A stretch of DNA of 11,177 nucleotides from assembly GCA_012744415.1 (NCBI GenBank), contig JAAYCF010000138.1, forward strand, positions 1 through 11,177. Reading direction: 5' to 3'. Positions 1 to 11,177 of this stretch are shown one piece after another; the stretch's first letter is position 1, and every line of letters begins with the position of its first letter. The position numbers and the translations under genes were made by a program. Origin of the DNA: Thermotogaceae bacterium. Lineage in GTDB: Bacteria > Thermotogota > Thermotogae > MWEM01. The notes under the pieces are model-generated. The model did no database searches. It had not been told where the DNA came from and saw only the letters and a list, made by a program, of their open reading frames with translations.

Positions 1-194
1 AAGGAGAAGTCGCTCGATTTTTACAAGTTTTGGAAAAATACGAAGTATCCCCGGAGATCACGCGCCAACGCTTGTACATCGAGACCATGGAAAAAGTGCT
101 CCCGAACTTCAAAACCCTGATTATACCTGGAGATAGCGGAAATACCTTGAAACTCCTGGATATTCAAGCCTTGCTAAACGGAGGGGATCTATAA
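1..194 (+). CDS. hflK: HflK (FtsH protease modulator, SPFH/band-7 family), C-terminal fragment; the 5' end lies outside the window
   Basis: Frame 3 translates as ...EITRQRLYIETMEKVLPNFKTLIIPGDSGNTLKLLDIQALLNGGDL*. The 'ETMEKVL' C-terminal stretch is typical of HflK. The TAA stop at 192-194 overlaps the hflC ATG (TAATG), which is the classic hflK-hflC arrangement. Confidence 0.7.
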   Translation, partial: GEVARFLQVLEKYEVSPEITRQRLYIETMEKVLPNFKTLIIPGDSGNTLKLLDIQALLNGGDL

Positions 195-1054
195 TGAAAG
201 CTTTTTGGTGGTTCCTCGGGATTTTCATAGCTTTTTTCGTTGTTTTCGCCTTAGTGACCTACACGGTTGATGAGACACAACTCGCGATCCGTTTGCGGTT
301 TGGAAAGATTATGGACGTCCACGATAAGGCCGGAATCCATTTCAAAGCTCCTTTTATCGATAAGATAGAAAAGCGGGACAAACGCATCATGCTTTATGAT
401 AGCGCCCCCGAAAGCGTTCTCACAGTTGACAAAAAGCGACTGGAAGTGGACAGTTTCATCTTGTGGCGGATCTCGGATTCGAAAACCTTCCTGGAAACGC
501 TCAACAACACGAATAGCGCGTTAAACCGAATCGATGACATCGTCTACTCGAATATCCGCGATTCCTTTGCCAAACTGACGATTTCGGACATCATCTCTGA
601 AGACCGCCGCGCCTATCTTGAATCGATTACGAACCAGACATCCGATATTTTAAAGACATTTGGCGTACAAGTAACGGACGTCAACGTAAAACGGACCGAT
701 CTTCCGGACACCAACGCGAAGGCGGTATTCGAACGGATGAAATCTGAACGGTATCAGGCGGCGGCGAAGATTCGAGCCGAGGGAGAGAAAGAGTATAAAG
801 AGATCGTGGCGAGAGCGGAAAAGGAATCTTCGGTCCTGATCGCAGAAGCGAATAAACAAGCGGAAGAGATTCGAGGGAAGGGAGACGCTTCGGCTTTGGA
901 GGTTTACGCCTCAGCTTTTTCGAAAGACCCGGAATTCTACCATTTCTGGCGCTCTTTGACCGCTTACGAATCCGTCTTTCAAAAAGAAGCCGTGGTGTTA
1001 CTGGACGAAAAGGTTGATTTTTTACAGTATCTCTTTTCACATAAAGCTGAATAG
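194..1054 (+). CDS. hflC: HflC (FtsH protease modulator, SPFH/band-7 family)
   Basis: 286 aa. There is an N-terminal TM anchor (FWWFLGIFIAFFVVFALV). Segments 'LEVDSFILWRISDSKTF' and 'ASAFSKDPEFYHFWRSLTAYESVF' closely resemble E. coli HflC ('IVDSYIKWRISDF', 'ADAFSKDPDFYAFIRSLRAYENSF'). An SD-like cGGAGGGG sits 7 nt upstream of the ATG. Confidence 0.85.
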   Translation: MKAFWWFLGIFIAFFVVFALVTYTVDETQLAIRLRFGKIMDVHDKAGIHFKAPFIDKIEKRDKRIMLYDSAPESVLTVDKKRLEVDSFILWRISDSKTFLETLNNTNSALNRIDDIVYSNIRDSFAKLTISDIISEDRRAYLESITNQTSDILKTFGVQVTDVNVKRTDLPDTNAKAVFERMKSERYQAAAKIRAEGEKEYKEIVARAEKESSVLIAEANKQAEEIRGKGDASALEVYASAFSKDPEFYHFWRSLTAYESVFQKEAVVLLDEKVDFLQYLFSHKAE

Positions 1055-1060
1055 GGAAAG

Positions 1061-1768
1061 ATGAGCGTCGGTTCGACCGCGGGTTCTTTTTTTTCCGTGC
1101 GGGACCCTATCCTTGGGCAGACTTCTCGGGGACAGGAAAGGATAGAAACGGAGGTCGTTATCCATCGATCGCGGTTTATCGGTTGTGCCGCCCAGGTTCA
1201 TACGAAAGAAGAAGTGACAGATTTTATAAAAACCGCGAAAACGAGACATCCTCAAGCGAATCATCACGTTTGGGCTTATGTGATCGAGACGAAAAGCGGC
1301 AGCTTTCATTTTTCAGATGATGGTGAACCGGGAGGAACGGCCGGTGCGCCAGTTTTCGGGGTCTTATCCAAGTATCGGCTGGAGAAGACGGCCCTTGTCG
1401 TAACCCGTTACTTCGGAGGCATCAAGTTGGGGATTAGCGGGTTGATCGAAGCCTATCGCCGGTCCGCAGAAGAGACGGTTATGACAGTCGGTATCGTGCG
1501 TTACCGTCTCTATCGACGATATGCCTGTTCTTTGGCCTATCACGATTGGAAAGGCTTCCGTCACTTTTTGTCCGCGCTTGACGTTCCAGAGATTGGGATT
1601 ACAGTTCGATATGCCGAAAAGGTTGAGATTCTGGTCTCGATCGCTGAGGAAAAAGCGAGCCGACTCAGGGAAGAATTGGATCGTTACGTCGGGATGCGGA
1701 AGATCACAGGATATTCGGAAGGTGAACCGGGTTTTGCCCCGGATGAATCTGAAGCGGACACTCTTTAG
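1061..1768 (+). CDS. yigZ: YigZ / IMPACT-family protein (UPF0029 N-domain plus a C-terminal DUF1949-like region)
   Basis: Motifs 'IHRSRFIGCAAQV', 'HHVWAYV', 'FSDDGEPGGTAGAPV' and 'VVTRYFGGIKLGISGLIEAY' match the IMPACT/YigZ signature (E. coli 'KKSRFIT', 'HHCVAWV', 'FSDDGEPAGTAGKPM', 'VVVRYYGGILLG'). The gene begins 6 nt after the hflC stop. The exact start is uncertain; the ATG at 1061 has a very short SD spacing. Confidence 0.8.
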   Translation: MSVGSTAGSFFSVRDPILGQTSRGQERIETEVVIHRSRFIGCAAQVHTKEEVTDFIKTAKTRHPQANHHVWAYVIETKSGSFHFSDDGEPGGTAGAPVFGVLSKYRLEKTALVVTRYFGGIKLGISGLIEAYRRSAEETVMTVGIVRYRLYRRYACSLAYHDWKGFRHFLSALDVPEIGITVRYAEKVEILVSIAEEKASRLREELDRYVGMRKITGYSEGEPGFAPDESEADTL

Positions 1769-1783
1769 CGGAGCGTATAACGT

Positions 1784-4327
1784 ATGAGCGTATGGGAAGC
1801 GTTGGTATTCAGTCTCTCGTTATTAACCTCGGATCTGTTGATTCTCAACGGAATCTCAAAGTTTGATCTCAACAGGAAGACATCATTCTCTTTTATCCTG
1901 ATGTCTTTCGTTACCTCGATCGGATACGGACTCCTCCGATATGTCACAATTATTCTATTTGACGATCTCTATCTCGTCACCAACATTTTGTTTTTTTTGA
2001 ATAATCTCTGGTTGTTGGTATTCTTTCGAAATGCGGTCGTTCAGTATAATGATCACATTCCGATCGGCCGATATTTTGTTCTGTCGATTATTTGCTTCCT
2101 CGTCCCCATCTCCTTCGGTCTGTTTTTCAACCCGATGGGCAACTTCGAAACCCTAATGGTCCAAATGTCCTACATGTTGGGCGTTTTACCGATGGTCGTC
2201 TATTCTTCGATGCTGGCGGGGGTTTCCGTCGGCTCGGCGGTGTGGGGGATCATCATCGCGTGTTTCTTGTTTTCTGTGGACTTCTTTCTGCGTTTCGGGT
2301 TTTTTCGGATCCTACAAACGGAATTCCAAGAGGTGGTTTCGGAAACTTTTCGCGTCGTGTCGATCTTGCTGATTAGCATCTTCGGTCACTACGGCCAACC
2401 GATTCCGCCGGGAAAAAATCGGGAGATCATCCCTGGCACGCAACGGTTAAACAATGTGTTCTTCGCCTTGATCGCGTTTTTTCCAGTTATGATCTTTTAC
2501 ACCGTCTTTTGGCAGGTCAATCTCAACGACCGAAAAATGCAACAAAAAGAGATTGAGCTATCGAAAGAAGTCTTTATGATTAGCAGCAAAATGCTGGAAG
2601 ACAGAATCGAAACCTACTCTCGGATCGTCAACGAAGTGAAGAATTCGGCGAATCTTGCCACGGCGCAATGGAAACTCAAGACTTTTTTGTTTACCGACCC
2701 CGAAATCGATGTCGCGCAGCTTCTAACCTCTTATCCGATCATGTACAAGAACGAGGAAGTGGTCTTCGAGAGGGGTCGCGTCACTTTCTATACCCGTACC
2801 GATCAAGGGTGGGGCATTAAACTTTCGGTGAACATGGAGACCCTGTACGCGCAATTCCCGCTAAACGACTCCCAAAGGTTCTACGCTTTCCTGAACGATA
2901 CGACGTTTTTGTACCCTCCGGGGAGACTAATTGAAGCGAACGCCCTTTTCACCAGTCTCGGAGAGAGAGACTATATCTTCGTGAATTCGATCAATCTCTA
3001 TGAAAAACCGTTTCTTACCTACCTCATATTCAGCACCTCTCCGATCAGCGTCAACATCTATACGCTCGCTTTCATGCTGGGGGCGATATTTATTCTGGTC
3101 TTAGTATGGTGGTTCTATGGTTTCTACATCCATAGTTGGGAGAAGACGGCCAAAGAGAAGTATTTCTCGTTGAATCAAGCCAAAGAAGAGTACGGGGAAC
3201 AGATTGGCCGTTTAGAAAGCTCTTTGAAACTCATGTCTGGAGACTTGCAGATTACGGCCGATAAGCTTGATCAGTTCAGTCGAACGGTGTACCAACTTAC
3301 CGATAGTTTCTCGGGCTTTGATTTCCAAAAAGGGCCGACCTTTGAGCTGAAACAGTTATACGATAAGTTGCTGTCGATTATGAACTGGGTCGAAGATATC
3401 CTCTTTTTCCAAAAAACGGAACCGAAAGGGAAACTTTTGGCTTTTTCAGGAGGCGAACCTGTTTTAACGGCGCTGCCTCCTTCTCTCTTTCAGACTCCCA
3501 AAGAACTGTGGGTTGGACAACTTTCCTTGGGCCTTCCCGAAGAAGATCGGGGGACCTCTTCGGAAGGGTTATCGCCTCTTCAGAAAAAGGTTTTAGCCTC
3601 AAAAACCATCTCAATCGACAAACGCGATCTGATCCTCCTTGTTTTATTGAAAAGCAGAGCTTATGATCCTTCCGATTACGAGTTTCATTTTTTGCGCACA
3701 CTGTTCAATATTTCCGAACTGTATTTAAAAATCTTTTATTCGACGAAACGCAACGAAACCATCTCCCAAAAGTATATCTTACTATCTCGGTTTCAGATGA
3801 GCCTACTTTCTCCCCAAACGGTCGAGGCTACGGGCGCGGTGGCGGTTAACCCGTCCAACATCGGCGACGGTACCCAGAAAGTCATTTCGGCCTTTATCTC
3901 TTTCTTAAGGAAAATATACCCGGAAGCTTCCTTATGGGGAGTACGAATCGGTCCTGAAGAGAAGCCCGAAGATCAAATGCTCTACTATGCCAGGAAACCG
4001 TCCCATCCTGATCCAGGCGGGAACGTCTCTTTGAAGATCGAAAGAAAACGCTTGGATGAAGAGTTACAAGAACGCTTTTCCGCTTCGTTTTCTCCGGCGA
4101 AACCGTTCATGGGAGAGATCAGCGAAAAAGAAGGGATCGCACCCGATTCCCATTCCCGGATCTACCTCCCGCTTTACGCCCGTTCCGAGCCGATCGTGGC
4201 GCTATTAATGGAGTTTTCGTTTTTTAAGGTGTTTTCCAATGTGGAGAAAGAATACCTCTTTTTTCTTTGCCAGATACTCGGAGAAGCATTCGACGCCGTT
4301 CATCATAGCGGAAAGGTTTCACGATGA
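1784..4327 (+). CDS. Polytopic membrane sensor-like protein of 847 aa. It has about 8 N-terminal TM helices, a ~155-aa soluble domain, a TM hairpin, a coiled-coil segment and C-terminal GAF-like region(s). No kinase, GGDEF, EAL or other output domain is recognisable.
   Basis: Hydrophobic stretches occupy residues ~5-246 and ~400-440. The heptad-like charged segment 'EKTAKEKYFSLNQAKEEYGEQIGRLESSLKLMSGDLQITADKLDQFSRTV' looks like a coiled coil. The C-terminus 'SRIYLPLYARSEPIVALLMEFSFFKVFSNVEKEYLFFLCQILGEAFDAV' resembles the end of a GAF domain. An earlier 'KRDLILLVLLKSRAYDPSDYEFHFLRTLFNISELYLK' suggests a second GAF-like unit. 'ggag' lies 9 nt before the ATG. Confidence 0.6.
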   Translation: MSVWEALVFSLSLLTSDLLILNGISKFDLNRKTSFSFILMSFVTSIGYGLLRYVTIILFDDLYLVTNILFFLNNLWLLVFFRNAVVQYNDHIPIGRYFVLSIICFLVPISFGLFFNPMGNFETLMVQMSYMLGVLPMVVYSSMLAGVSVGSAVWGIIIACFLFSVDFFLRFGFFRILQTEFQEVVSETFRVVSILLISIFGHYGQPIPPGKNREIIPGTQRLNNVFFALIAFFPVMIFYTVFWQVNLNDRKMQQKEIELSKEVFMISSKMLEDRIETYSRIVNEVKNSANLATAQWKLKTFLFTDPEIDVAQLLTSYPIMYKNEEVVFERGRVTFYTRTDQGWGIKLSVNMETLYAQFPLNDSQRFYAFLNDTTFLYPPGRLIEANALFTSLGERDYIFVNSINLYEKPFLTYLIFSTSPISVNIYTLAFMLGAIFILVLVWWFYGFYIHSWEKTAKEKYFSLNQAKEEYGEQIGRLESSLKLMSGDLQITADKLDQFSRTVYQLTDSFSGFDFQKGPTFELKQLYDKLLSIMNWVEDILFFQKTEPKGKLLAFSGGEPVLTALPPSLFQTPKELWVGQLSLGLPEEDRGTSSEGLSPLQKKVLASKTISIDKRDLILLVLLKSRAYDPSDYEFHFLRTLFNISELYLKIFYSTKRNETISQKYILLSRFQMSLLSPQTVEATGAVAVNPSNIGDGTQKVISAFISFLRKIYPEASLWGVRIGPEEKPEDQMLYYARKPSHPDPGGNVSLKIERKRLDEELQERFSASFSPAKPFMGEISEKEGIAPDSHSRIYLPLYARSEPIVALLMEFSFFKVFSNVEKEYLFFLCQILGEAFDAVHHSGKVSR

Positions 4328-4349
4328 GAGTTAATAAAAGGAGGGCGGC

Positions 4350-4895
4350 ATGAAACGCCGACGAATAGGAATCGTAATATTCTGGATGCTTGTACTGAGC
4401 GGAGTGTGTTTGATGGCCGCCGAGTACCGCACCTCTTTGCAGGCAGAGTTTCCAAATCGGGTGAAAGAGCTGGAAGCGATTCTGGGAATGACCATCGAGG
4501 AGTCCGTCGTCGTTGTAAAAGAGTTCTCAAGCGTCGAGGCCTTTACGCGCGAAACCGGCGCGCCCTATTGGATTCGAGGGTTCACGAACGCTTATCGGAT
4601 ATGCTTGCAGAGCCGGCATCTGTTAGGCGAATCCGTCTATCGGAGCCTTTTAGAACACGAATTGCTGCATTGGACGATTCGGCGGCAAGCGGCTTTTCCT
4701 CTCTGGTTCGAGGAAGGAGTCGTCTGTTTAATCACGGGAGAGTTGTCCGGTTACCGAGATATCCCCGTGATGAAAAACGTGGAATCCGTAGACCCGATTA
4801 CCTTGAAAAATCCGTGGGAAATGGTATCCTATTCATTGGGTTGCTTGGAAAAAGTGAAAGAAATCGTGCAGAAGCAAACGGAGGGGCGTCCATGA
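4350..4895 (+). CDS. Small secreted or membrane-anchored putative zinc metallopeptidase with an HExxH zincin motif resembling the Peptidase_MA_2 pattern
   Basis: 181 aa. The N-terminal signal or anchor is MKRRRIGIVIFWMLVLSGVCLMAAEY. In 'LEHELLHWTIRRQAAFPLWFEEGVVCLITGE' an HExxH is followed ~17 residues later by a W-x-E-E-G motif, the pattern of the Peptidase_MA_2-like gluzincin family. A strong SD (aAGGAGGg) sits 7 nt upstream. Confidence 0.6.
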   Translation: MKRRRIGIVIFWMLVLSGVCLMAAEYRTSLQAEFPNRVKELEAILGMTIEESVVVVKEFSSVEAFTRETGAPYWIRGFTNAYRICLQSRHLLGESVYRSLLEHELLHWTIRRQAAFPLWFEEGVVCLITGELSGYRDIPVMKNVESVDPITLKNPWEMVSYSLGCLEKVKEIVQKQTEGRP

Positions 4896-5644
4896 TTTAT
4901 CCGGTACCGACACATACTTATAAAAAAAAGCCGAAACGCAAAGTTCCATGGCTGTTGATTTTGATTCTCATCGCGATTGCGTTCGCTGTTTTTTTCCTTT
5001 TCTATACTCATAATCTTCTCTTCGACAGCAGCGATATGACCGAACCCGTCGTCGACTTTCTCTTTCTGATACAGGATAAAGAGGAAGTCTTCTTTATCCG
5101 GTCCAACAGACAGCAAAAAATCAGCTATGCCGTACAGATGCCCTTAAAAAGCTTTGAACCGATCCAAGCCGTATCTTTGGACCAATCGACACCGCAGGGC
5201 ATCTATAATTCGATAGAAAAGCTCTTTGGACGGGCTAATCGGAGTTTCTGGGCGACGATAGAGACCTCTGACTTCACCGTTCTCGCACAGCTCTCGAAGA
5301 ACGCGCCAGACGTATCCCAAACAGGCGCTTCAGCGCCTTCATATGACATTCATCACTTTATCGGATTAGTACAACAGATTGATCTATCCGTGATCGAATT
5401 TATTTTCTTTCCGAAGATGAAGGCGTTACAAAATATCTTTAAGATGGATAACTTCAATAATCGCTCCGCTTTTCGCTTGGTCGACCAGCTGAAAAATTAT
5501 GCCTATAAAGCCACGCCGGTGGCCTTTCTCACTAAAAACCCTGTTACGATCCGGTACCTAACCGATTCGGGAGAAGTCGAGGTGGAACGGTTTTATTTAG
5601 ACGATAAGAGTTTAAAGTCGATCAAGGAGTTTATGTCCCAATGA
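4892..5644 (+). CDS. Membrane-anchored (type II) hypothetical protein, possibly a catalytically degenerate LCP-like paralog
   Basis: The ATG at 4892 overlaps the upstream stop (ATGA) and is preceded by GGAGGGG. The product is 250 aa with a Lys-rich cytoplasmic tail and one TM (WLLILILIAIAFAVFFLFY). The segment 'QGIYNSIEKLFGRANRSFWATIETSDFTVLAQL' aligns by eye with the LCP core of the next gene ('NGIYKKYGVEALQRTIESLFDLSIARYAVVDYEVFEFL'), but the RxD and SIPRD catalytic motifs are absent. The longer ORF-track version (4406..5644) is an out-of-frame upstream extension and is not used. Confidence 0.55.
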   Translation: MIYPVPTHTYKKKPKRKVPWLLILILIAIAFAVFFLFYTHNLLFDSSDMTEPVVDFLFLIQDKEEVFFIRSNRQQKISYAVQMPLKSFEPIQAVSLDQSTPQGIYNSIEKLFGRANRSFWATIETSDFTVLAQLSKNAPDVSQTGASAPSYDIHHFIGLVQQIDLSVIEFIFFPKMKALQNIFKMDNFNNRSAFRLVDQLKNYAYKATPVAFLTKNPVTIRYLTDSGEVEVERFYLDDKSLKSIKEFMSQ

Positions 5645-6948
5645 TACGGAACAGCCAAAGGGGCGGCGGGGCTTTATTAGCGTTGCCTTCCATCCTTCTT
5701 TGCGCCTCTGTCACCGTGTTCTTCCTAATCTTGCCCGGTTTCTTGAGCGACATTTTTACAGGGTCCGACGACACAACCGCGCAAACGGGTAAGGCGTACT
5801 ATCTGATATTAGGTGTAGACGACGCGGCAGCGGGAGGCGCTGATCGAACAGACATGATCGGCATTTTGGGGATCCATTTTGAAACGAAAAAATCGATCTT
5901 TATAAGCATCCCACGTGACTTGATGGTATCGAACGTTTCAGCGGAACAACCGCCTTCGGCTACTTCCACCGTGAGCGACCTAATATCACAACCTCTCGTG
6001 AAGATTAACGGAATTTATAAAAAATACGGTGTCGAGGCGTTGCAAAGAACCATCGAATCTTTGTTCGACTTATCGATCGCGCGGTATGCCGTGGTCGACT
6101 ATGAGGTTTTTGAATTTCTGGGCGATCTTCTCGGTCCGGTTAAAGTGAATATACGAACCACTTTAGACTACGAAGACACGCAACAAAACCTGAAGATCCA
6201 TTTTGAACCCGGTATTCAGGAACTAAACGGGAAGCAGCTGTTGCTCTATATCCGGTACCGAAACGACCCGCTCGGTGATTTGGGCAGAATCCAACGGCAA
6301 AAAGAAGTCTTATTCAGTTTGCTCCAGTCTTTGAAACTGAAGAAAGAAACAGCAACGATCAACCGCGTCATTCAGGAAGTTTTGGGAAAGATCGAAACGA
6401 ATTTCGACGCCCTCGACTTGCTTTCTTTGTGGGGATATGCGGAGGCATTAGGTGAAATCGCGTTTTTAAACTTTCCCTATACGATCAACGCCAAAGGAGA
6501 TATAGAGATTTCCTCCGAAAAGATGAAGCAAGTGCGAGAAGAAATCATTCTGATGGAAGCGGTCCAAGAACCTTATGTTCCCCAGTTGATCTTAATCAAT
6601 GCCTGGAACGACAATGCTTATCAATTCTCCGTCGTGGAATACAATCAATGGACGGGGCAGGGGATCCGCCCTTTCATTATCGAAAAACGGCTCGTTAATG
6701 AAGCCGTGAAAAAGGTTGCCGAAAACCGTGATTTAGTGTGTTTTTTAACACGAGACACGGAAAAACAAAAGGATATTTCGGAACGTTATCAAAGGGTGTA
6801 CCCAGCACGCCCGTATTTAGCGATTTATCCTGATATCGGCGCCGCATTTTCATTTCAAGATTATCTATCCGTTGTCGATACGTTGATGAAAGCGAAGGCC
6901 GCTTTTCCTTTTCCCGCTGACGCTTTGATTATCAAAACGCACCCATAA
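5641..6948 (+). CDS. LytR-CpsA-Psr (LCP) family phosphotransferase-like protein with an N-terminal TM anchor and a ~190-aa C-terminal extension
   Basis: The ATG overlaps the upstream stop (ATGA). There is one TM (ALLALPSILLCASVTVFFLILPGFL). LCP hallmarks are present: 'YYLILGVDDAAAGGADRTDMIGILGI', 'ISIPRDLMV', 'INGIYKKYG', 'YAVVDYEVFEFLGDLLGPVKVNI', 'LNGKQLLLYIRYRNDPLGDLGRIQRQKEVL'. Confidence 0.8.
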   Translation: MIRNSQRGGGALLALPSILLCASVTVFFLILPGFLSDIFTGSDDTTAQTGKAYYLILGVDDAAAGGADRTDMIGILGIHFETKKSIFISIPRDLMVSNVSAEQPPSATSTVSDLISQPLVKINGIYKKYGVEALQRTIESLFDLSIARYAVVDYEVFEFLGDLLGPVKVNIRTTLDYEDTQQNLKIHFEPGIQELNGKQLLLYIRYRNDPLGDLGRIQRQKEVLFSLLQSLKLKKETATINRVIQEVLGKIETNFDALDLLSLWGYAEALGEIAFLNFPYTINAKGDIEISSEKMKQVREEIILMEAVQEPYVPQLILINAWNDNAYQFSVVEYNQWTGQGIRPFIIEKRLVNEAVKKVAENRDLVCFLTRDTEKQKDISERYQRVYPARPYLAIYPDIGAAFSFQDYLSVVDTLMKAKAAFPFPADALIIKTHP

Positions 6949-6961
6949 TAAGGAGGTCGGC

Positions 6962-8371
6962 ATGCTTCAGAAACAAGAAATGGAAGAGGTTTTAAGCATA
7001 CTACTCGAGGCGGGAGGGGATTTCGGAGAACTTTTTTTTGAAGACACGCGTTCCGCGGAAATGTCTATGATAGACGGCAAACTCGAGAAGGTCAACTCCG
7101 GAAGGATTTGCGGAATCGGGTTAAGAGCCTTCCTGAATACGAATGCGGTCTACGCTTATACCAATGATCTCTCCATCGAAAACCTGAAAGGGACGGCCCG
7201 GAGAATAGGTAAAGCGTTAAAAGGCCTGCCGAAACCCCAAGAACCGTTTATTCTCAACGAAAAACATTATGAAACGAAGCTGCCCGTTTTATTGCCCTTC
7301 GAAATCATTGAAAAACGAGAAAAAAAACACGTGATGCAAATGGCGAACGAAGGCGCGAGAACTTATGCGCCGTCGGGAAGTGCTTTAGCGGATTTGATCG
7401 GCCAGATAGAGGTCAGTTATTTGGAAAAGGATCAATATGTGCGGATCGCTAATACCGATGGAATGCTTACCGAGGATCGCCGAAGAAGGACCCGGCTGAC
7501 CACGAGGGTTATCGCGGCTGAAAACGGTCAAAAAGAGACCGGTTCGAGTTCTCCGGGATACGGAACAGGTTTCGAATTTTACAACCTCATCGACCCGAGG
7601 GAGGTCGGGCAAGAAGCCGCCCGTATCGCGCTTCGAATGATACGCGCGGACTACGCTCCTGCTGGAATGATGCCGGTTGTGATTGGAAACGGCTTCGGCG
7701 GCGTCATCTTTCATGAAGCGTGTGGGCATTCTCTTGAAGCGACGTCTGTCGCGAAAGGAGCGTCCGTCTTTTGTGGTAAAGTCGGGCAGAAGATTGCGAA
7801 TGACTGCGTGAACGCGGTAGATGATGGCACGATCCCGAATGCCTGGGGGACTAGCACCGTCGATGACGAAGGAACACCCACCCAAAGAAATCAGTTGATC
7901 GAAAACGGGATCCTAAAAGGATATCTGGTGGATCGTCTGAATGCCCGAAAGATGGGGGCGAATCCGACAGGAAGCGGTCGTCGCGAAAACTATACCTACG
8001 CGCCGACCTCACGGATGTCCAATACCTTCCTAATGCCAGGACAATCCATACCGGAAGAGATTATAGCCAACACCGAAAGGGGCTTGTACGCGAAGACGAT
8101 GGGTGGGGGTTCCGTTCAACCGACAACCGGCGAGTTCAACTTCGCCGTGCTAGAAGGGTACCTTATAGAAAAAGGACGGGTGGTGAAACCGGTACGCGGC
8201 GCTACCCTTATCGGGAAAGGCCATGAAGTATTGGAAAAGATCGATATGATCGGGAATGACCTTACGAGATCCCAAGGAATGTGCGGCTCCATTTCGGGGT
8301 CGATCCCGGCAGATGTCGGACAGCCGACGATCCGTGTTTCCGAATTGCTGGTGGGGGGGCGAAATACATGA
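6962..8371 (+). CDS. tldD: TldD metalloprotease (TldD/PmbA family, HExxxH)
   Basis: 469 aa. 'AGMMPVVIGNGFGGVIFHEACGHSLEA', 'GTPTQRNQLIENGILKGYLVDRLNARKMGANPTGSGRRENY', 'KPVRGATLIGKGHEVLEKIDMIGNDL' and 'VGQPTIRVSELLVGG' align almost motif-for-motif with E. coli TldD. An AAGGAGG SD sits 7 nt upstream. Confidence 0.9.
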   Translation: MLQKQEMEEVLSILLEAGGDFGELFFEDTRSAEMSMIDGKLEKVNSGRICGIGLRAFLNTNAVYAYTNDLSIENLKGTARRIGKALKGLPKPQEPFILNEKHYETKLPVLLPFEIIEKREKKHVMQMANEGARTYAPSGSALADLIGQIEVSYLEKDQYVRIANTDGMLTEDRRRRTRLTTRVIAAENGQKETGSSSPGYGTGFEFYNLIDPREVGQEAARIALRMIRADYAPAGMMPVVIGNGFGGVIFHEACGHSLEATSVAKGASVFCGKVGQKIANDCVNAVDDGTIPNAWGTSTVDDEGTPTQRNQLIENGILKGYLVDRLNARKMGANPTGSGRRENYTYAPTSRMSNTFLMPGQSIPEEIIANTERGLYAKTMGGGSVQPTTGEFNFAVLEGYLIEKGRVVKPVRGATLIGKGHEVLEKIDMIGNDLTRSQGMCGSISGSIPADVGQPTIRVSELLVGGRNT

Positions 8372-9735
8372 ACTTCGAAACCTTTAAAAACGCTGTCTTC
8401 GATATCGCTGCAAAAAAAGGCTTAAAAAACTACGAACTCTTCGGCATGGAACAGCGAGAATTTGAAATTAACTTTTTTGAAGGCGCGATCGAAGGTTACA
8501 AAGATGCCTCTTCCTCTGGGGCCAGTTTTAAAACGATCGTCGATGGGAAAGCAGGAATGAGTTTTACCGAAGTCTGGACGCCGGAAACAGCTGAAAAGAT
8601 CATCGACGATGCCTGCGAGAACAGCCAACAGGTTGACGCTTCGGATCCCGAGTTTATCTATGAAGGAAACGGTTCCTATCGCACTTTCCCGCCGTTTGAG
8701 GATCGATACGTGAAACTGCCGGTTGAGGAGAAGATCGCCTACGGCTTGGAGATGGAGAAGGCGGCGAAAGCGCATCATCCCTCGATCGTGAATATTCCCC
8801 ACTGCACCTATTTCGACGCGGCAGAGAGGTTTTACGTGAGTAATTCTCACGGGGTTCATTTGGAATGTGGCCGTGAAGGCGGAGGAGGGTACCTCGTCGC
8901 GGTCGCTTCAGACGGAAAAGCCGCGAAAACCGGTTTAGAGTTCGTCGCGCAGGAATCTCCTGTCGGTTTGGATTTTGTGACAATGGCGCAAAAAGCGGCA
9001 GAAAGAGCCCTGAAGAAACTCGGCGCAAAAAGTATCAAAAGCGGGAAATATCCGATTATCCTTGATTACAATATGGTCGGCGAATTGTTATCGCTTTTTT
9101 CATTTATGATCAACGCCGAAAACGTGCAAAAAGGGTTATCGCTGTTAGCTGGAAAGCTACATCAAGCGATCGTTTCTCCCGCGATCACTATCGTCAACGA
9201 ACCTTATATCGAAGGCGGAATCTCGAATATCCCTTTCGATGCTGAAGGCGTACCGACAAAGACGCTAACGATCGTACAGAACGGGATTTTGGAAACCTTT
9301 TTGCATCGCATCAAAACGGCTAAGAAGGATGGTGTTCCTCCGACGGGCAATGCGACACGAGGGCGATACAATCAAGCGCCGGCGATCGCTCCGCAAAATC
9401 TGTTGCTGCGCGCGGGTCCGCTCTCTTTGGAAGAACTGATGCGAAAGATGGGGGATGGCCTCTATATCACGGACCTGCAAGGGATGCACTCCGGCGCGAA
9501 TCCGTATTCCGGGCAATTGTCGCTCGCTGCGGAAGGCTTCAGGATAGAGAACGGAAAGATCGCTTATCCTGTAGAACAGATAACGATCGCCGGGAATGTG
9601 TTGGAACTATTCGGGAAAGTCGCCGGGATCGGGTCGGAGTCGAAGCTTTCGTTGCCATCAGGTAACTTTAGCGTTTATTGTCCTGATCTCTATTTTTCCG
9701 AAGCGGATATCGCCGGGACGGAATCTCCTTCTTGA
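8368..9735 (+). CDS. pmbA: PmbA/TldE, the partner subunit of TldD
   Basis: The ATG at 8368 overlaps the tldD TGA (ATGA) and follows a G-rich SD-like stretch (GGTGGGGGGG). The product is 455 aa. 'PFDAEGVPTKTLTIVQNGIL', 'GVPPTGNATRG', 'LEELMRKMGDGLYITDLQGMHSGANPYSGQLSLAAEGFRIENGKIAYPVEQITIAGNV' match the PmbA family. The ORF-track start at 8281 is an in-frame upstream extension inside tldD and was not used. Confidence 0.88.
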   Translation: MNFETFKNAVFDIAAKKGLKNYELFGMEQREFEINFFEGAIEGYKDASSSGASFKTIVDGKAGMSFTEVWTPETAEKIIDDACENSQQVDASDPEFIYEGNGSYRTFPPFEDRYVKLPVEEKIAYGLEMEKAAKAHHPSIVNIPHCTYFDAAERFYVSNSHGVHLECGREGGGGYLVAVASDGKAAKTGLEFVAQESPVGLDFVTMAQKAAERALKKLGAKSIKSGKYPIILDYNMVGELLSLFSFMINAENVQKGLSLLAGKLHQAIVSPAITIVNEPYIEGGISNIPFDAEGVPTKTLTIVQNGILETFLHRIKTAKKDGVPPTGNATRGRYNQAPAIAPQNLLLRAGPLSLEELMRKMGDGLYITDLQGMHSGANPYSGQLSLAAEGFRIENGKIAYPVEQITIAGNVLELFGKVAGIGSESKLSLPSGNFSVYCPDLYFSEADIAGTESPS

Positions 9736-10325
9736 AAAAAGTGGGGATAACCGGATCCATTGCTTCCGGAAAATCTGTAGTGAGTCGATACTACGAAAGA
9801 AAAGGATATCCGGTCGTTTACGAAGACGAGGTGGGACATCAAGCGCTTGCGGATCAACGAATCCTTAAAAAGATCATCTGTTTCTTTGGAAATGGGATTT
9901 TAGGCGCTCACGGCGAAATCGACCGGAAAGCATTGGGAAATATTGTTTTCTCTGATCCCGAGGCATTGCGTAGCCTGAACGCTATCGTCCATCCTTGGAT
10001 GATCTCTCAAACGTTGTCGCGTTTTTCGGCCTTAGAAGAAACACGTTATCCGCTTGTCTTTTTGGAAGCGGCGATTCTGTACGAAATGAGTTTAGACCGG
10101 CACGTCGATTCGGTTGTTTTCGTCGACGCGACTCAAAAAACCCGAATTCAACGCCTCATGACCTCTCGCGGTTATGACTTGGCTGAAGCGCAAAAGCGCG
10201 TGAAAGCGCAACGTATCGGACAATACAAAAAGAAAAGCGATTTCGTTATTCGTAATGAAGGCACGCTTGAATCACTATACCAACGATGCGACCGCCTCTT
10301 GAACGTTTTATTGGCAAACGGGTGA
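9732..10325 (+). CDS. coaE: Dephospho-CoA kinase
   Basis: There is a P-loop 'GITGSIASGKS' at the N-terminus, and the length (~195 aa) and overall pattern are CoaE-like. The start is TTG at 9732 overlapping the pmbA stop (TTGA); the in-frame GTG at 9741 is an alternative. Confidence 0.8.
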   Translation: MKKVGITGSIASGKSVVSRYYERKGYPVVYEDEVGHQALADQRILKKIICFFGNGILGAHGEIDRKALGNIVFSDPEALRSLNAIVHPWMISQTLSRFSALEETRYPLVFLEAAILYEMSLDRHVDSVVFVDATQKTRIQRLMTSRGYDLAEAQKRVKAQRIGQYKKKSDFVIRNEGTLESLYQRCDRLLNVLLANG

Positions 10326-10347
10326 AAACCCGTTTGCCTCACGGTTT
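10326..10347. terminator. Short hairpin in the 13-bp gap between convergent coaE and the MaoC-like gene, overlapping the MaoC stop codon; a possible bidirectional terminator
   Basis: AAACCCGT / ACGGTTT form a 7-bp stem with one bulged C and a 7-nt loop. T-runs flank it on both strands (TTT on plus, GTTTT on minus). The stem is weak and short. Confidence 0.25.
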
Positions 10348-10743
10348 CATGACTTCGGCTTCGCCGATGATCACCTTTTCTCCACTTTCGCTGATGACAT
10401 CTGTTCTCAAGATCAGCCGCTTTTTTTCGTCATTCTTTTCTGTCACTTCCACCTCGACGGTCACCTTATCCCCGATAAAGACTGGCCGTCTGAAACGAAC
10501 CTTTTGCGACACATAGATCGTCCCGTCACCCGGAAAATCGCGCCCAAGAACCTTCGAAATAAAGGATGCCACGAGCATCCCGTGGGCGATTCGCCTACCA
10601 AACTGCGTTGTTCTGGCGAATTCCTCGTCGAGGTGGACGGGGTTCATATCCCCGGTCAGTTCCGCGAAAGCTTTTACGCGTTCTTCCGAAACGAGGAATT
10701 CTTGCCGGTTAATCATTCCGATACCGATATCCGAAAAATCCAT
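10339..10743 (-). CDS. MaoC-like (R)-specific enoyl-CoA hydratase / hotdog-fold dehydratase
   Basis: 134 aa. 'FAELTGDMNPVHLDEEFARTTQFGRRIAHGMLVASFIS' is the MaoC dehydratase signature. An SD-like GGGGGT sits 6 nt before the ATG on the minus strand. Confidence 0.85.
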   Translation of the reverse strand: MDFSDIGIGMINRQEFLVSEERVKAFAELTGDMNPVHLDEEFARTTQFGRRIAHGMLVASFISKVLGRDFPGDGTIYVSQKVRFRRPVFIGDKVTVEVEVTEKNDEKKRLILRTDVISESGEKVIIGEAEVMKP

Positions 10744-10760
10744 AATCTACCCCCTAGCCG

Positions 10761-10779
10761 ATCGAACCGTTTGTTCGAT
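10761..10779. promoter_or_regulatory. Perfect 7-bp inverted repeat ATCGAAC-N5-GTTCGAT, a possible operator in the 5' leader of the MaoC-like gene
   Basis: I read the palindrome directly from the sequence. It lies between the predicted minus-strand TSS and the start codon. Confidence 0.25.
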
Positions 10780-10789
10780 AATCCCCTTT

Positions 10790-10818
10790 ATACTAACGGA
10801 CGCGTTGATAAATGTCAA
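10790..10818 (-). promoter_or_regulatory. Candidate sigma70-type promoter for the MaoC-like gene
   Basis: The minus strand carries TTGACA (plus coordinates 10813-10818), a 17-nt spacer and TAGTAT (plus 10790-10795). This places the TSS near 10782, about 38 nt upstream of the ATG. Confidence 0.35.
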
Positions 10819-10909
10819 GGGGGGAGCGAATTTCGACTATACCGAGCTGTTCGTGCCCGTTGTCGGACTATCCTCCCCAAAAAGGCGCGTTTACTGATAG
10901 TAGATATGT

Positions 10910-10939
10910 TTGTTTTTTATTAACTGTTTCGGGTATAAT
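10910..10939 (+). promoter_or_regulatory. Candidate promoter for the TPR lipoprotein gene
   Basis: A perfect TATAAT sits at 10934-10939 with TTGTTT 18 nt upstream. The leader to the GTG is ~30 nt and includes GGGAG. Confidence 0.35.
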
Positions 10940-10974
10940 TCTTCCATTACCGTCGAATAGGGAGTGATTGAAGT

Positions 10975-11177
10975 GAAAAAAGCGGGTTGGTTGGGGATTC
11001 TTTTTGTCGTATTCATACTCTTCTTTTCTGCTTGCGCCTACATCGATATTCGGCCGATGATTGACGCCGGGTTCACTTATCTCAACTCGGGAGACTTGGG
11101 TACTGCGGAAACATGCTTTCGAGAAGCGCTCAGAAGGAATTACTCACAACCGCAAGCCAATCTCGGACTTTCTCTGA
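10975..11177 (+). CDS. TPR-repeat putative lipoprotein; N-terminal fragment that continues past the window end
   Basis: A GTG start lies 8 nt after GGGAG. 'VKKAGWLGILFVVFILFFSAC' is a signal peptide with a lipobox-like FSAC. 'GFTYLNSGDLGTAETCFREALRRNYSQPQANLGLSL' is TPR-like. There is no ATG in frame; an alternative GTG is at 10966. Confidence 0.55.

Follow-up and report, generated by a model that had tools for sequence, protein, structure and literature searches.

How can a membrane protein that has the parts of a receptor act on the cell when its chain ends without an enzyme? The question is raised by an 11,177-nucleotide (nt) stretch of DNA from a Thermotogaceae bacterium (GenBank assembly GCA_012744415.1, contig JAAYCF010000138.1, positions 1 to 11,177 of the forward strand), analyzed over its full length and here called the window. 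One open reading frame (ORF) of the window, here named X, begins with ATG and encodes a product of 847 amino acids (aa). A first-pass annotation made from the sequence alone described this product as a receptor-like protein without an output domain. The receptor-like architecture was borne out by our analysis: X is predicted to consist of eight N-terminal transmembrane (TM) helices, a periplasmic domain, a ninth TM helix (TM9), and a cytoplasmic tandem of GAF-like modules. This architecture is well supported. As to function, we tentatively regard X as a regulatory subunit, receptor-like in build, of an extracytoplasmic envelope module; p181, the product of the next gene, would be its most specific partner.

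Gene X and the family it defines

Judged by its homologs (29% to 99% identity), which share the start M-x-[IV]-W, gene X is genuine. Homologs were found at 99%, 85%, 59% to 63%, 35%, and 30% identity, and the alignments span the full length of the protein. The start of X lies 15 nt past the yigZ stop codon, and 22 nt, including an AAGGAGG ribosome-binding site, separate its own stop codon from the next ATG (position 4350). Both the ORF and the 22-nt spacing given in the first-pass annotation were thus confirmed by the ORF list and by inspection of the junctions.

A word-indexed search of 5.8 billion proteins returned 6 relatives of X, and 1.84 billion cluster representatives, searched exhaustively with an HMMER profile, yielded 9, of which 5 were full-length and divergent and the rest look like fragments or an assembly chimera. 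The family comprises ~8 lineages, all of them Thermotogota metagenome-assembled genomes (MAGs) or metagenomes. Two hosts were named by the genome scan, both Thermotogae/Thermotogota MAGs, and one NCBI record is also labeled Thermotogota. The 13 full-length sequences, which include metagenome loci and form the set used for conservation analysis, are 759 to 850 aa long, collinear, and devoid of any additional domain; no variant with a fused output domain was found in either homolog search. Sequences P0010 to P0012 look like fragments. Sequence P0008 (438 aa) is identical to an X homolog over residues 1 to 310, where an unrelated, duplicated 'KTGDILGPYTFENFKWATVKACKVDSDKKPLAGWELTLGTV' repeat abruptly takes over; it probably represents a chimera of the assembly and not a domain fusion. 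No description of the family was found in the literature on LytR-CpsA-Psr (LCP) proteins with GAF domains and on the Thermotogota envelope. X represents a genuine, unannotated, lineage-restricted family.

Across the 13 sequences, 71 residues are invariant. The TM bundle (residues 1 to 247) holds 39 of these at 42% mean pairwise identity, the ectodomain (residues 248 to 424) holds 16 at 38%, and TM9 with the juxtamembrane residues holds 7 at 45%, leaving 9 for the ~400-aa region of the linker and the two GAF-like modules, where mean pairwise identity is 24% to 29%.

Predicted architecture of X

Hydropathy and an AlphaFold2 (AF2) model agree on the eight N-terminal TM helices (residues 2 to 25, 35 to 57, 60 to 88, 94 to 115, 121 to 149, 152 to 171, 179 to 203, and 219 to 247), which are joined by loops of only 2 to 15 residues into a compact bundle. 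The numbers of lysine plus arginine residues, averaged over the 13 members, are 2.3, 1.85, 4.5, and 3.1 for loops 1, 3, and 7 and the segment after TM9, respectively, and 0.15, 0.23, 0.15, and 0 for the N terminus, loops 2 and 4, and the segment before TM9. Therefore, the N terminus is placed outside, residues 248 to 424 in the periplasm, and the 400-aa tail in the cytoplasm. The invariant residues of the bundle include N73, N74, R82, D166, R170, S186, E187, R190, N224, Q244, and N246. In the predicted topology, D166, R170, S186, E187, R190, Q244, and N246 form a polar cluster at the outer leaflet, continued by Q253 and E256 in the stalk, and R82, S148, S151, W154, G155, and N224 form a cluster at the cytoplasmic face.

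The TM region of X and six homologs had no Pfam match at E values of ≤10, including matches to 5TMR-LYT, MASE, and 7TMR-DISM, and the helix count is unlike that of 5TMR-LYT and 7TMR-DISM. Among the PDB ranks listed by Foldseek for the full-length model, only GAF, PHY, and Cache structures occurred, with no membrane protein. A 4+4 repeat within the bundle was rejected by a sequence test (hhalign probability, <1%). Intramembrane enzymes of the exosortase/rhombosortase, CPBP/CAAX, and PrsW types, considered on the basis of their motifs, were also rejected, as the bundle has no invariant cysteine or histidine and no Pfam match. The first-pass annotation had counted about eight helices, had been unable to assign the bundle to 5TMR-LYT, MASE, or 7TMR-DISM by eye, and had left the location of the soluble insert ambiguous. 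The first two statements hold, and the charge counts settle the third as periplasmic. Its length for the insert (~155 aa) and its TM hairpin behind the insert need correction: the insert is ~177 aa long (residues 248 to 424) and is followed by just one TM helix.

In the AF2 model, TM helix 8 (TM8) is the first part of a long helix that extends up to residue 286, and a second helix (residues 291 to 304) and eight beta strands (residues 308 to 417) follow. This periplasmic domain is probably PDC/Cache-like, as suggested by the predicted fold. Foldseek did not report the aligned query range, and the Cache matches of the full-length model were assigned to residues 248 to 424 by inference because none of them occurred in the top 50 matches of the separately modeled C terminus and because the helix-helix-sheet order is as expected. 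The Cache profiles (dCache_1, sCache_2, sCache_3, and related) had no match in X (Pfam; seven members, E ≤ 10). The helix starting with TM9 is unbroken over residues 425 to 487 in the AF2 model, although the predicted local distance difference test (pLDDT) score is low at residues 474 to 495, and sequence and profile searches of the PDB with X gave only coiled-coil-type noise over residues 454 to 513 (weak tropomyosin, GCN4, and Lpp-type matches). Of the heptad-rich linker described in the first-pass annotation, the helix (residues 448 to 487) is present, though with low pLDDT scores.

Two cytoplasmic alpha/beta modules, at residues 492 to 675 (module A) and 694 to 842 (module B), complete the AF2 model. 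Residues 490 to 847 were also modeled separately, with five concordant models (pLDDT, 69 to 74). Foldseek compared this model with the PDB and gave 225 matches at E values of ≤1e-3 (best E, 7e-9; probability, 1.0), and the top 50 were all tandem GAF-A/GAF-B structures (PDE6C, PDE6, PDE2A, and PDE5A) or phytochrome GAF-PHY structures. In support of module A, E values of 7e-9 to 1e-6 were obtained with this C-terminal model for GAF-PHY structures of phytochromes and for the GAF tandems of PDE6, PDE2A, and PDE5A. The predicted models have the antiparallel five- to six-stranded sheet, with N- and C-terminal helices packed on one side, by which the GAF fold is recognized, and support for two C-terminal GAF-like modules comes from this predicted fold. 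The GAF profiles PF01590, PF13185, and PF13492 had no match in X (Pfam and NCBIfam, E ≤ 1; seven members, E ≤ 10; PDB profile search). Mean pairwise identity within the X family is 24% for module A, and the residues of the GAF pockets are too poorly conserved to point to a ligand. In the cytoplasmic part, strong conservation is confined to the end of module B (P796, E810, F817, E821, E823, and F826), which resembles the F-[ST]-x-x-[DE]-x-x-L-L consensus with which the last helix of GAF domains usually opens. Sequence repeats between the two modules, or between the ectodomain and either of them, were rejected (hhalign probabilities, <1%).

Two low-complexity insertions with low pLDDT scores were also seen, one in a loop of module A (residues ~575 to 600; nt ~3506 to 3580) and one in the linker between the modules (residues ~675 to 695; nt ~3806 to 3868). 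Both occur only in the window's lineage and its closest relative; homologs of <65% identity lack them.

No kinase, GGDEF, EAL, HD-GYP, STAS, or DNA-binding domain was found in X (Pfam and NCBIfam, E ≤ 1) or in the seven members (E ≤ 10). HisKA/HATPase_c, cyclase, and PP2C domains, even degenerate ones, had no profile match, and the listed fold matches were only to GAF, PHY, and Cache structures. The Pfam search with X and six homologs at E values of ≤10 yielded no family common to even two of the seven. A cryptic degenerate kinase was rejected because no sequence remains for it past module B, whose last helix ends 5 residues before the C terminus in the AF2 model. The first-pass annotation had proposed one or two GAF-like modules and no enzymatic output domain. 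The fold searches support two modules, the profile searches and the chain end agree with the missing output, and neither a C terminus unlike GAF nor a hidden catalytic domain such as a degenerate HATPase was encountered.

The closest structural relatives of X are the tandem GAFs of PDE2, PDE5, PDE6, and the cyanobacterial cyclase CyaB and the GAF-PHY modules of phytochromes. Those modules are soluble and fused to a phosphodiesterase, cyclase, or kinase, whereas X is membrane anchored and has no output domain. The structural alignments of X with the PDE and phytochrome GAFs have 8% to 13% identity, with no detectable sequence similarity. In architecture, the closest relatives are the LytS/BtsS kinases, which have the order 5TMR-LYT, GAF, HisKA, and HATPase_c. 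Like X, they combine a polytopic TM sensor that has conserved intramembrane polar residues with a cytoplasmic GAF domain. X differs from them in having 8+1 TM helices, a periplasmic domain, two GAF-like modules, and no kinase, and no 5TMR-LYT match was obtained with the seven members (E ≤ 10). Compared with the Cache/PDC sensors of KinD, DctB, PctA, and TlpC, the domain of X is preceded by eight TM helices instead of one, and no kinase or methyl-accepting chemotaxis protein output follows.

The conserved block and the proteins encoded next to X

The features of the window are listed in the table. At all X loci with enough flanking sequence, X belongs to a conserved block, (IF-2B-like)-TatD-HflK-HflC-YigZ-X-p181-p250-LCP, which was seen in the lineages of P0005, P0006, P0003, P0007, P0009, and P0027 and at metagenome loci L017 to L020, L022, and L026. 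The hflK-hflC-yigZ-X order is kept at every X locus that has upstream sequence, and the flanks outside the block vary between lineages. Identities to the window proteins, with the closer lineage L009 left out, are 54% to 62% for HflC, 30% to 36% for X, 37% to 46% for p181, 32% to 38% for p250, and 30% to 33% for LCP. Depending on the lineage, X and p181 overlap by 4 or 23 nt or are separated by 1 to 22 nt. The p181/p250 and p250/LCP junctions in the window are ATGA start/stop overlaps, and the three genes overlap or abut across lineages. The linkage of X to its downstream genes, on which the first-pass annotation depended, is therefore conserved in every X lineage found.

Features of the window and segments of X (TM, transmembrane; AF2, AlphaFold2; K+R, lysine plus arginine)
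Feature	Position (nt)	Strand	Description	Basis
hflC	194-1054	+		Band_7; TIGR01932
yigZ/IMPACT	1061-1768	+		Pfam and NCBIfam
X, whole ORF	1784-4327	+	Includes stop codon	ORF list; homologs of same start and length; no Pfam, NCBIfam, or PDB sequence match
X residues 1-247	1784-2524	+	N-out 8-TM bundle, very short loops	39 invariant residues
X residues 248-424	2525-3055	+	Periplasmic domain: stalk helix continuous with TM8, second helix, 8 beta strands; probably PDC/Cache-like	
X residues 425-447	3056-3124	+	TM9, out to in; invariant L438, V439, L440, W442, F444	Hydropathy, AF2, alignment, K+R counts
X residues 448-491	3125-3256	+	Helical, coiled-coil-like linker in the cytoplasm, running on from TM9	AF2, PDB profile search
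X residues 492-675	3257-3808	+	GAF-like module A and long connecting helix	AF2, Foldseek
X residues 676-847	3809-4324	+	GAF-like module B; ends in motif LP...E[FY]..[FY][KR].F....E.E..FF	
p181	4350-4895	+	181 aa; N-terminal signal/anchor; invariant H103-E104-x-x-H107 ... E121-E122-G123-x-x-C126; no Pfam match above threshold	Alignment
p250	4892-5644	+	250 aa; single-pass membrane protein: M-I-Y-P-V-P, poly-K, TM helix, ~200-aa ectodomain; no Pfam match	Junctions, alignment
LCP	5641-6948	+	LytR-CpsA-Psr glycopolymer transferase	PF03816 (E 5e-31); TIGR00350
TldD	6962-8371	+		Pfam
PmbA	8368-9735	+		Pfam
CoaE	9732-10325	+		Pfam
MaoC-like dehydratase	10339-10743	-	Sole minus-strand gene in the window	PF01575 (E 1.8e-27)

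Protein p181 is a putative extracytoplasmic zincin, as judged from its sequence motifs. Residues H103, E104, H107, E121, E122, and G123 are invariant in six lineages, with the spacing HExxH-x13-EEG-x2-C, and supply both the HExxH motif and a candidate third ligand. Pfam matches were below threshold (Tox-MPTase3, E of 0.027 in two of six members; MPTase-PolyVal, E of 0.17), and p181 had no curated peptidase profile above threshold, no NCBIfam model, and no PDB sequence match. Assignment as a lipoprotein was rejected, as there is no conserved lipobox cysteine. Only seven homologs of p181 were found, all in the clade of X and always directly 3' of X, and no locus was found to have X without p181 or p181 without X.

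Protein p250 had no Pfam or PDB match, and a suspicion raised by eye that it is a degenerate LCP paralog was rejected (hhalign probability, 1%). By word-indexed search, its distribution looked as narrow as that of p181. When LCP-centered metagenome loci were searched with profiles, LCP was immediately preceded by a p250 homolog (E, 3e-6 to 4e-26) at ten loci (L025, L030, L031, L033, L034, L036, L039, L040, L050, and L055). No match to X or p181 was present in the sequence recovered there, which in several cases was a short contig with little upstream sequence. The upstream ORFs were listed at four of the X-less p250-LCP loci and scanned with Pfam at three, giving an HD-domain protein, a weak DUF4139-like match, and EF-G or AlaRS. 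Since p250-LCP occurs without X or p181 and the distribution of p181 equals that of X, the p250-LCP pair is, on these distributions, the older one, and X and p181 are a clade-specific, strictly co-occurring later addition. The p250 and LCP genes form a translationally coupled pair, and because this pair is also present in lineages lacking X and p181, p250 has the look of an LCP accessory protein that is widespread and so far undescribed.

The LCP protein itself scored 108 bits with PF03816 (cutoff, 24.6) and 98 bits with TIGR00350 (cutoff, 62.3). It has a TM anchor and a C-terminal extension of ~200 aa (residues ~233 to 435; window positions 6340 to 6948), and the C-terminal 202 aa had no Pfam match. 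Across the clade, the extension is kept in length and partly in sequence. X, p181, p250, and LCP all have extracytoplasmic parts.

The overlapping TldD/PmbA metallopeptidase genes follow LCP only in the window's lineage and in L007; since LCP is followed by different genes in other X lineages, they are not part of the conserved block. In several lineages with and without X, LCP is followed by an ORF of ~294 to 333 aa (L001, L011, L012, and L015, e.g., L001:14939-15859; also L034, L036, and L039, ~9079-10061), whose product had no Pfam match at the X-bearing loci. This ORF may be a further member of the LCP module that was lost or replaced by TldD/PmbA in the window's lineage. The MaoC-like gene marks the end of a long plus-strand gene array. 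Promoter and terminator, tRNA, and Rfam scans of the window gave nothing above chance.

Possible roles of X

In the explanation that we tentatively prefer, X would be the regulatory or transducing subunit of a co-transcribed extracytoplasmic envelope module. X would probably be dimeric, with the N-out 8-TM bundle, the periplasmic PDC/Cache-like domain, TM9, the linker, and the cytoplasmic GAF tandem arranged in this order. With its membrane and periplasmic parts, X would make contact with p181 and, either via p181 or next to it, with the p250-LCP pair, and the GAF tandem would couple the contact with p181 to a small-molecule or protein signal in the cytoplasm (inside-out control). Alternatively, X might relay an envelope signal inward. 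Dimerization, ligand binding, the contacts with p181, p250, or LCP, and the direction of signaling are parts of the scheme that we infer. It is supported by a block that stays identical where X is only 29% to 36% and HflC 54% to 62% identical and where the outer flanks differ, by the distribution of p181, which is as narrow as that of X, and by the short gaps or overlaps at the X/p181, p181/p250, and p250/LCP junctions. The first-pass annotation had named the downstream zincin and LCP proteins, or HflKC/FtsH upstream, as the plausible partners. The linkage is indeed conserved, but the candidates are not equivalent, p181 being the most specific, and p250 had been overlooked.

Several observations weigh against this explanation. 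The GAF and Cache assignments are not borne out by any sequence-profile test, the AF2 models of X were built on 7 to 8 sequences, and for the full-length protein the best model reached a pLDDT of 72.5 and the other four 51 to 55. The GAF region, which would receive the signal, is the least conserved part of X (24% to 26% mean pairwise identity), and the best conserved is the TM bundle, a pattern of sequence conservation that would be explained by a membrane-embedded active or binding site no less well than by signal relay alone. Since 39 of the 71 invariant residues are located in the bundle and 9 in the ~400-aa GAF region, the bundle may itself be the effector, a membrane domain of a new kind whose task would be to bind, translocate, or process a substrate embedded in the membrane, such as a polyprenyl-phosphate-linked precursor or product of LCP, an ion, or a small molecule. 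The Cache-like and GAF-like parts would then be regulatory appendages, and X would not be output-less. The compactness of the bundle and its polar clusters at the outer leaflet and the cytoplasmic face are consistent with such a role, as is the neighboring gene, LCP enzymes being known to use polyprenyl-pyrophosphate-linked polymers. We consider an effector bundle, the chief alternative, somewhat unlikely. Given the conservation of the bundle, protein-protein interaction is a possible way for X to signal and not, as stated in the first-pass annotation, a necessary one.

Two further observations speak against regulation of the envelope module by X and, at the same time, for a gene order that was merely inherited, its genes not being functionally coupled. 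All members of the family belong to a single clade, so that part of the synteny may reflect inheritance and not selection, and p250-LCP also occurs without X in other lineages. X could then be an orphan sensor that serves an unlinked kinase, cyclase, or second-messenger network, or it could be a substrate or modulator of HflKC-FtsH. The equally invariant hflK-hflC-yigZ order upstream would agree with this, and the promoter and terminator scans, being uninformative, leave room for it. Nevertheless, both flanks have been rearranged between lineages around an intact block, in most lineages the genes for X and p181 adjoin or overlap each other, and the two are equally restricted, with no locus that has just one of them, which makes mere inheritance unlikely. 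By analogy, X might also be a proteolytically controlled, anti-sigma-like anchor, with p181 cutting the periplasmic domain as the site-1 protease and the GAF tandem, once released or degraded (possibly by FtsH-HflKC), taking its effect in the cytoplasm. A putative extracytoplasmic zincin that always adjoins X, the FtsH modulators HflK and HflC encoded just upstream, and the one TM helix between the ectodomain and the cytoplasmic modules would suit this scheme. It is very improbable, as the conserved block encodes no sigma factor, transcription factor, or site-2 protease, the best conserved part of X, the 8-TM bundle, has no role in it, and it is drawn from analogy alone.

For X as a regulatory subunit of the envelope module, two known systems offer analogies. 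PelD is an output-less membrane receptor of exopolysaccharide machines, with four TM helices, a GAF domain, a degenerate GGDEF domain that binds cyclic di-GMP, and no ectodomain. X would share with it the concept of a membrane protein with a cytoplasmic GAF sensor and no catalysis that controls a polymer machine by contacts. The likeness is one of analogy only: X has an ectodomain and lacks both the 4-TM layout and the degenerate, cyclic di-GMP-binding GGDEF domain. FtsEX, together with PcsB, EnvC, or RipC, is a system of the ATP-binding cassette (ABC) type in which ATP drives the control of an extracytoplasmic cell wall hydrolase. Here the analogy is purely mechanistic, a cytoplasmic input being passed on to a hydrolase encoded nearby by a TM protein whose ectodomain is sizeable. 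Unlike the ABC-type FtsEX, X would use GAF domains, p181 is a putative zincin, and there is no homology.

A bolder and decidedly unlikely version is that X and p181 form an undescribed device for inside-out control. The GAF tandem, the 8-TM module sensing a lipid-linked wall precursor at its outer-leaflet cluster, and the Cache-like ectodomain would together gate the zincin and the LCP-mediated attachment of the polymers that tether the outer sheath (toga), and the 8-TM bundle would represent a new sensor or handling family for polyprenyl-linked substrates.

The general importance of these findings is limited by the size of the family, which is tiny and has been met only in metagenomes and in genomes of uncultured organisms. 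Sequence searches of Pfam, NCBIfam, and the PDB detected no relative of the 8-TM module, and if this module binds lipid-linked precursors, it would define a new family of membrane domains. If the function proposed for X is correct, X would be a compact receptor built from familiar folds, Cache outside and tandem GAF inside, whose sole output is contact with envelope enzymes, and it would provide a first handle on how the Thermotogota regulate the attachment of wall polymers by LCP proteins.

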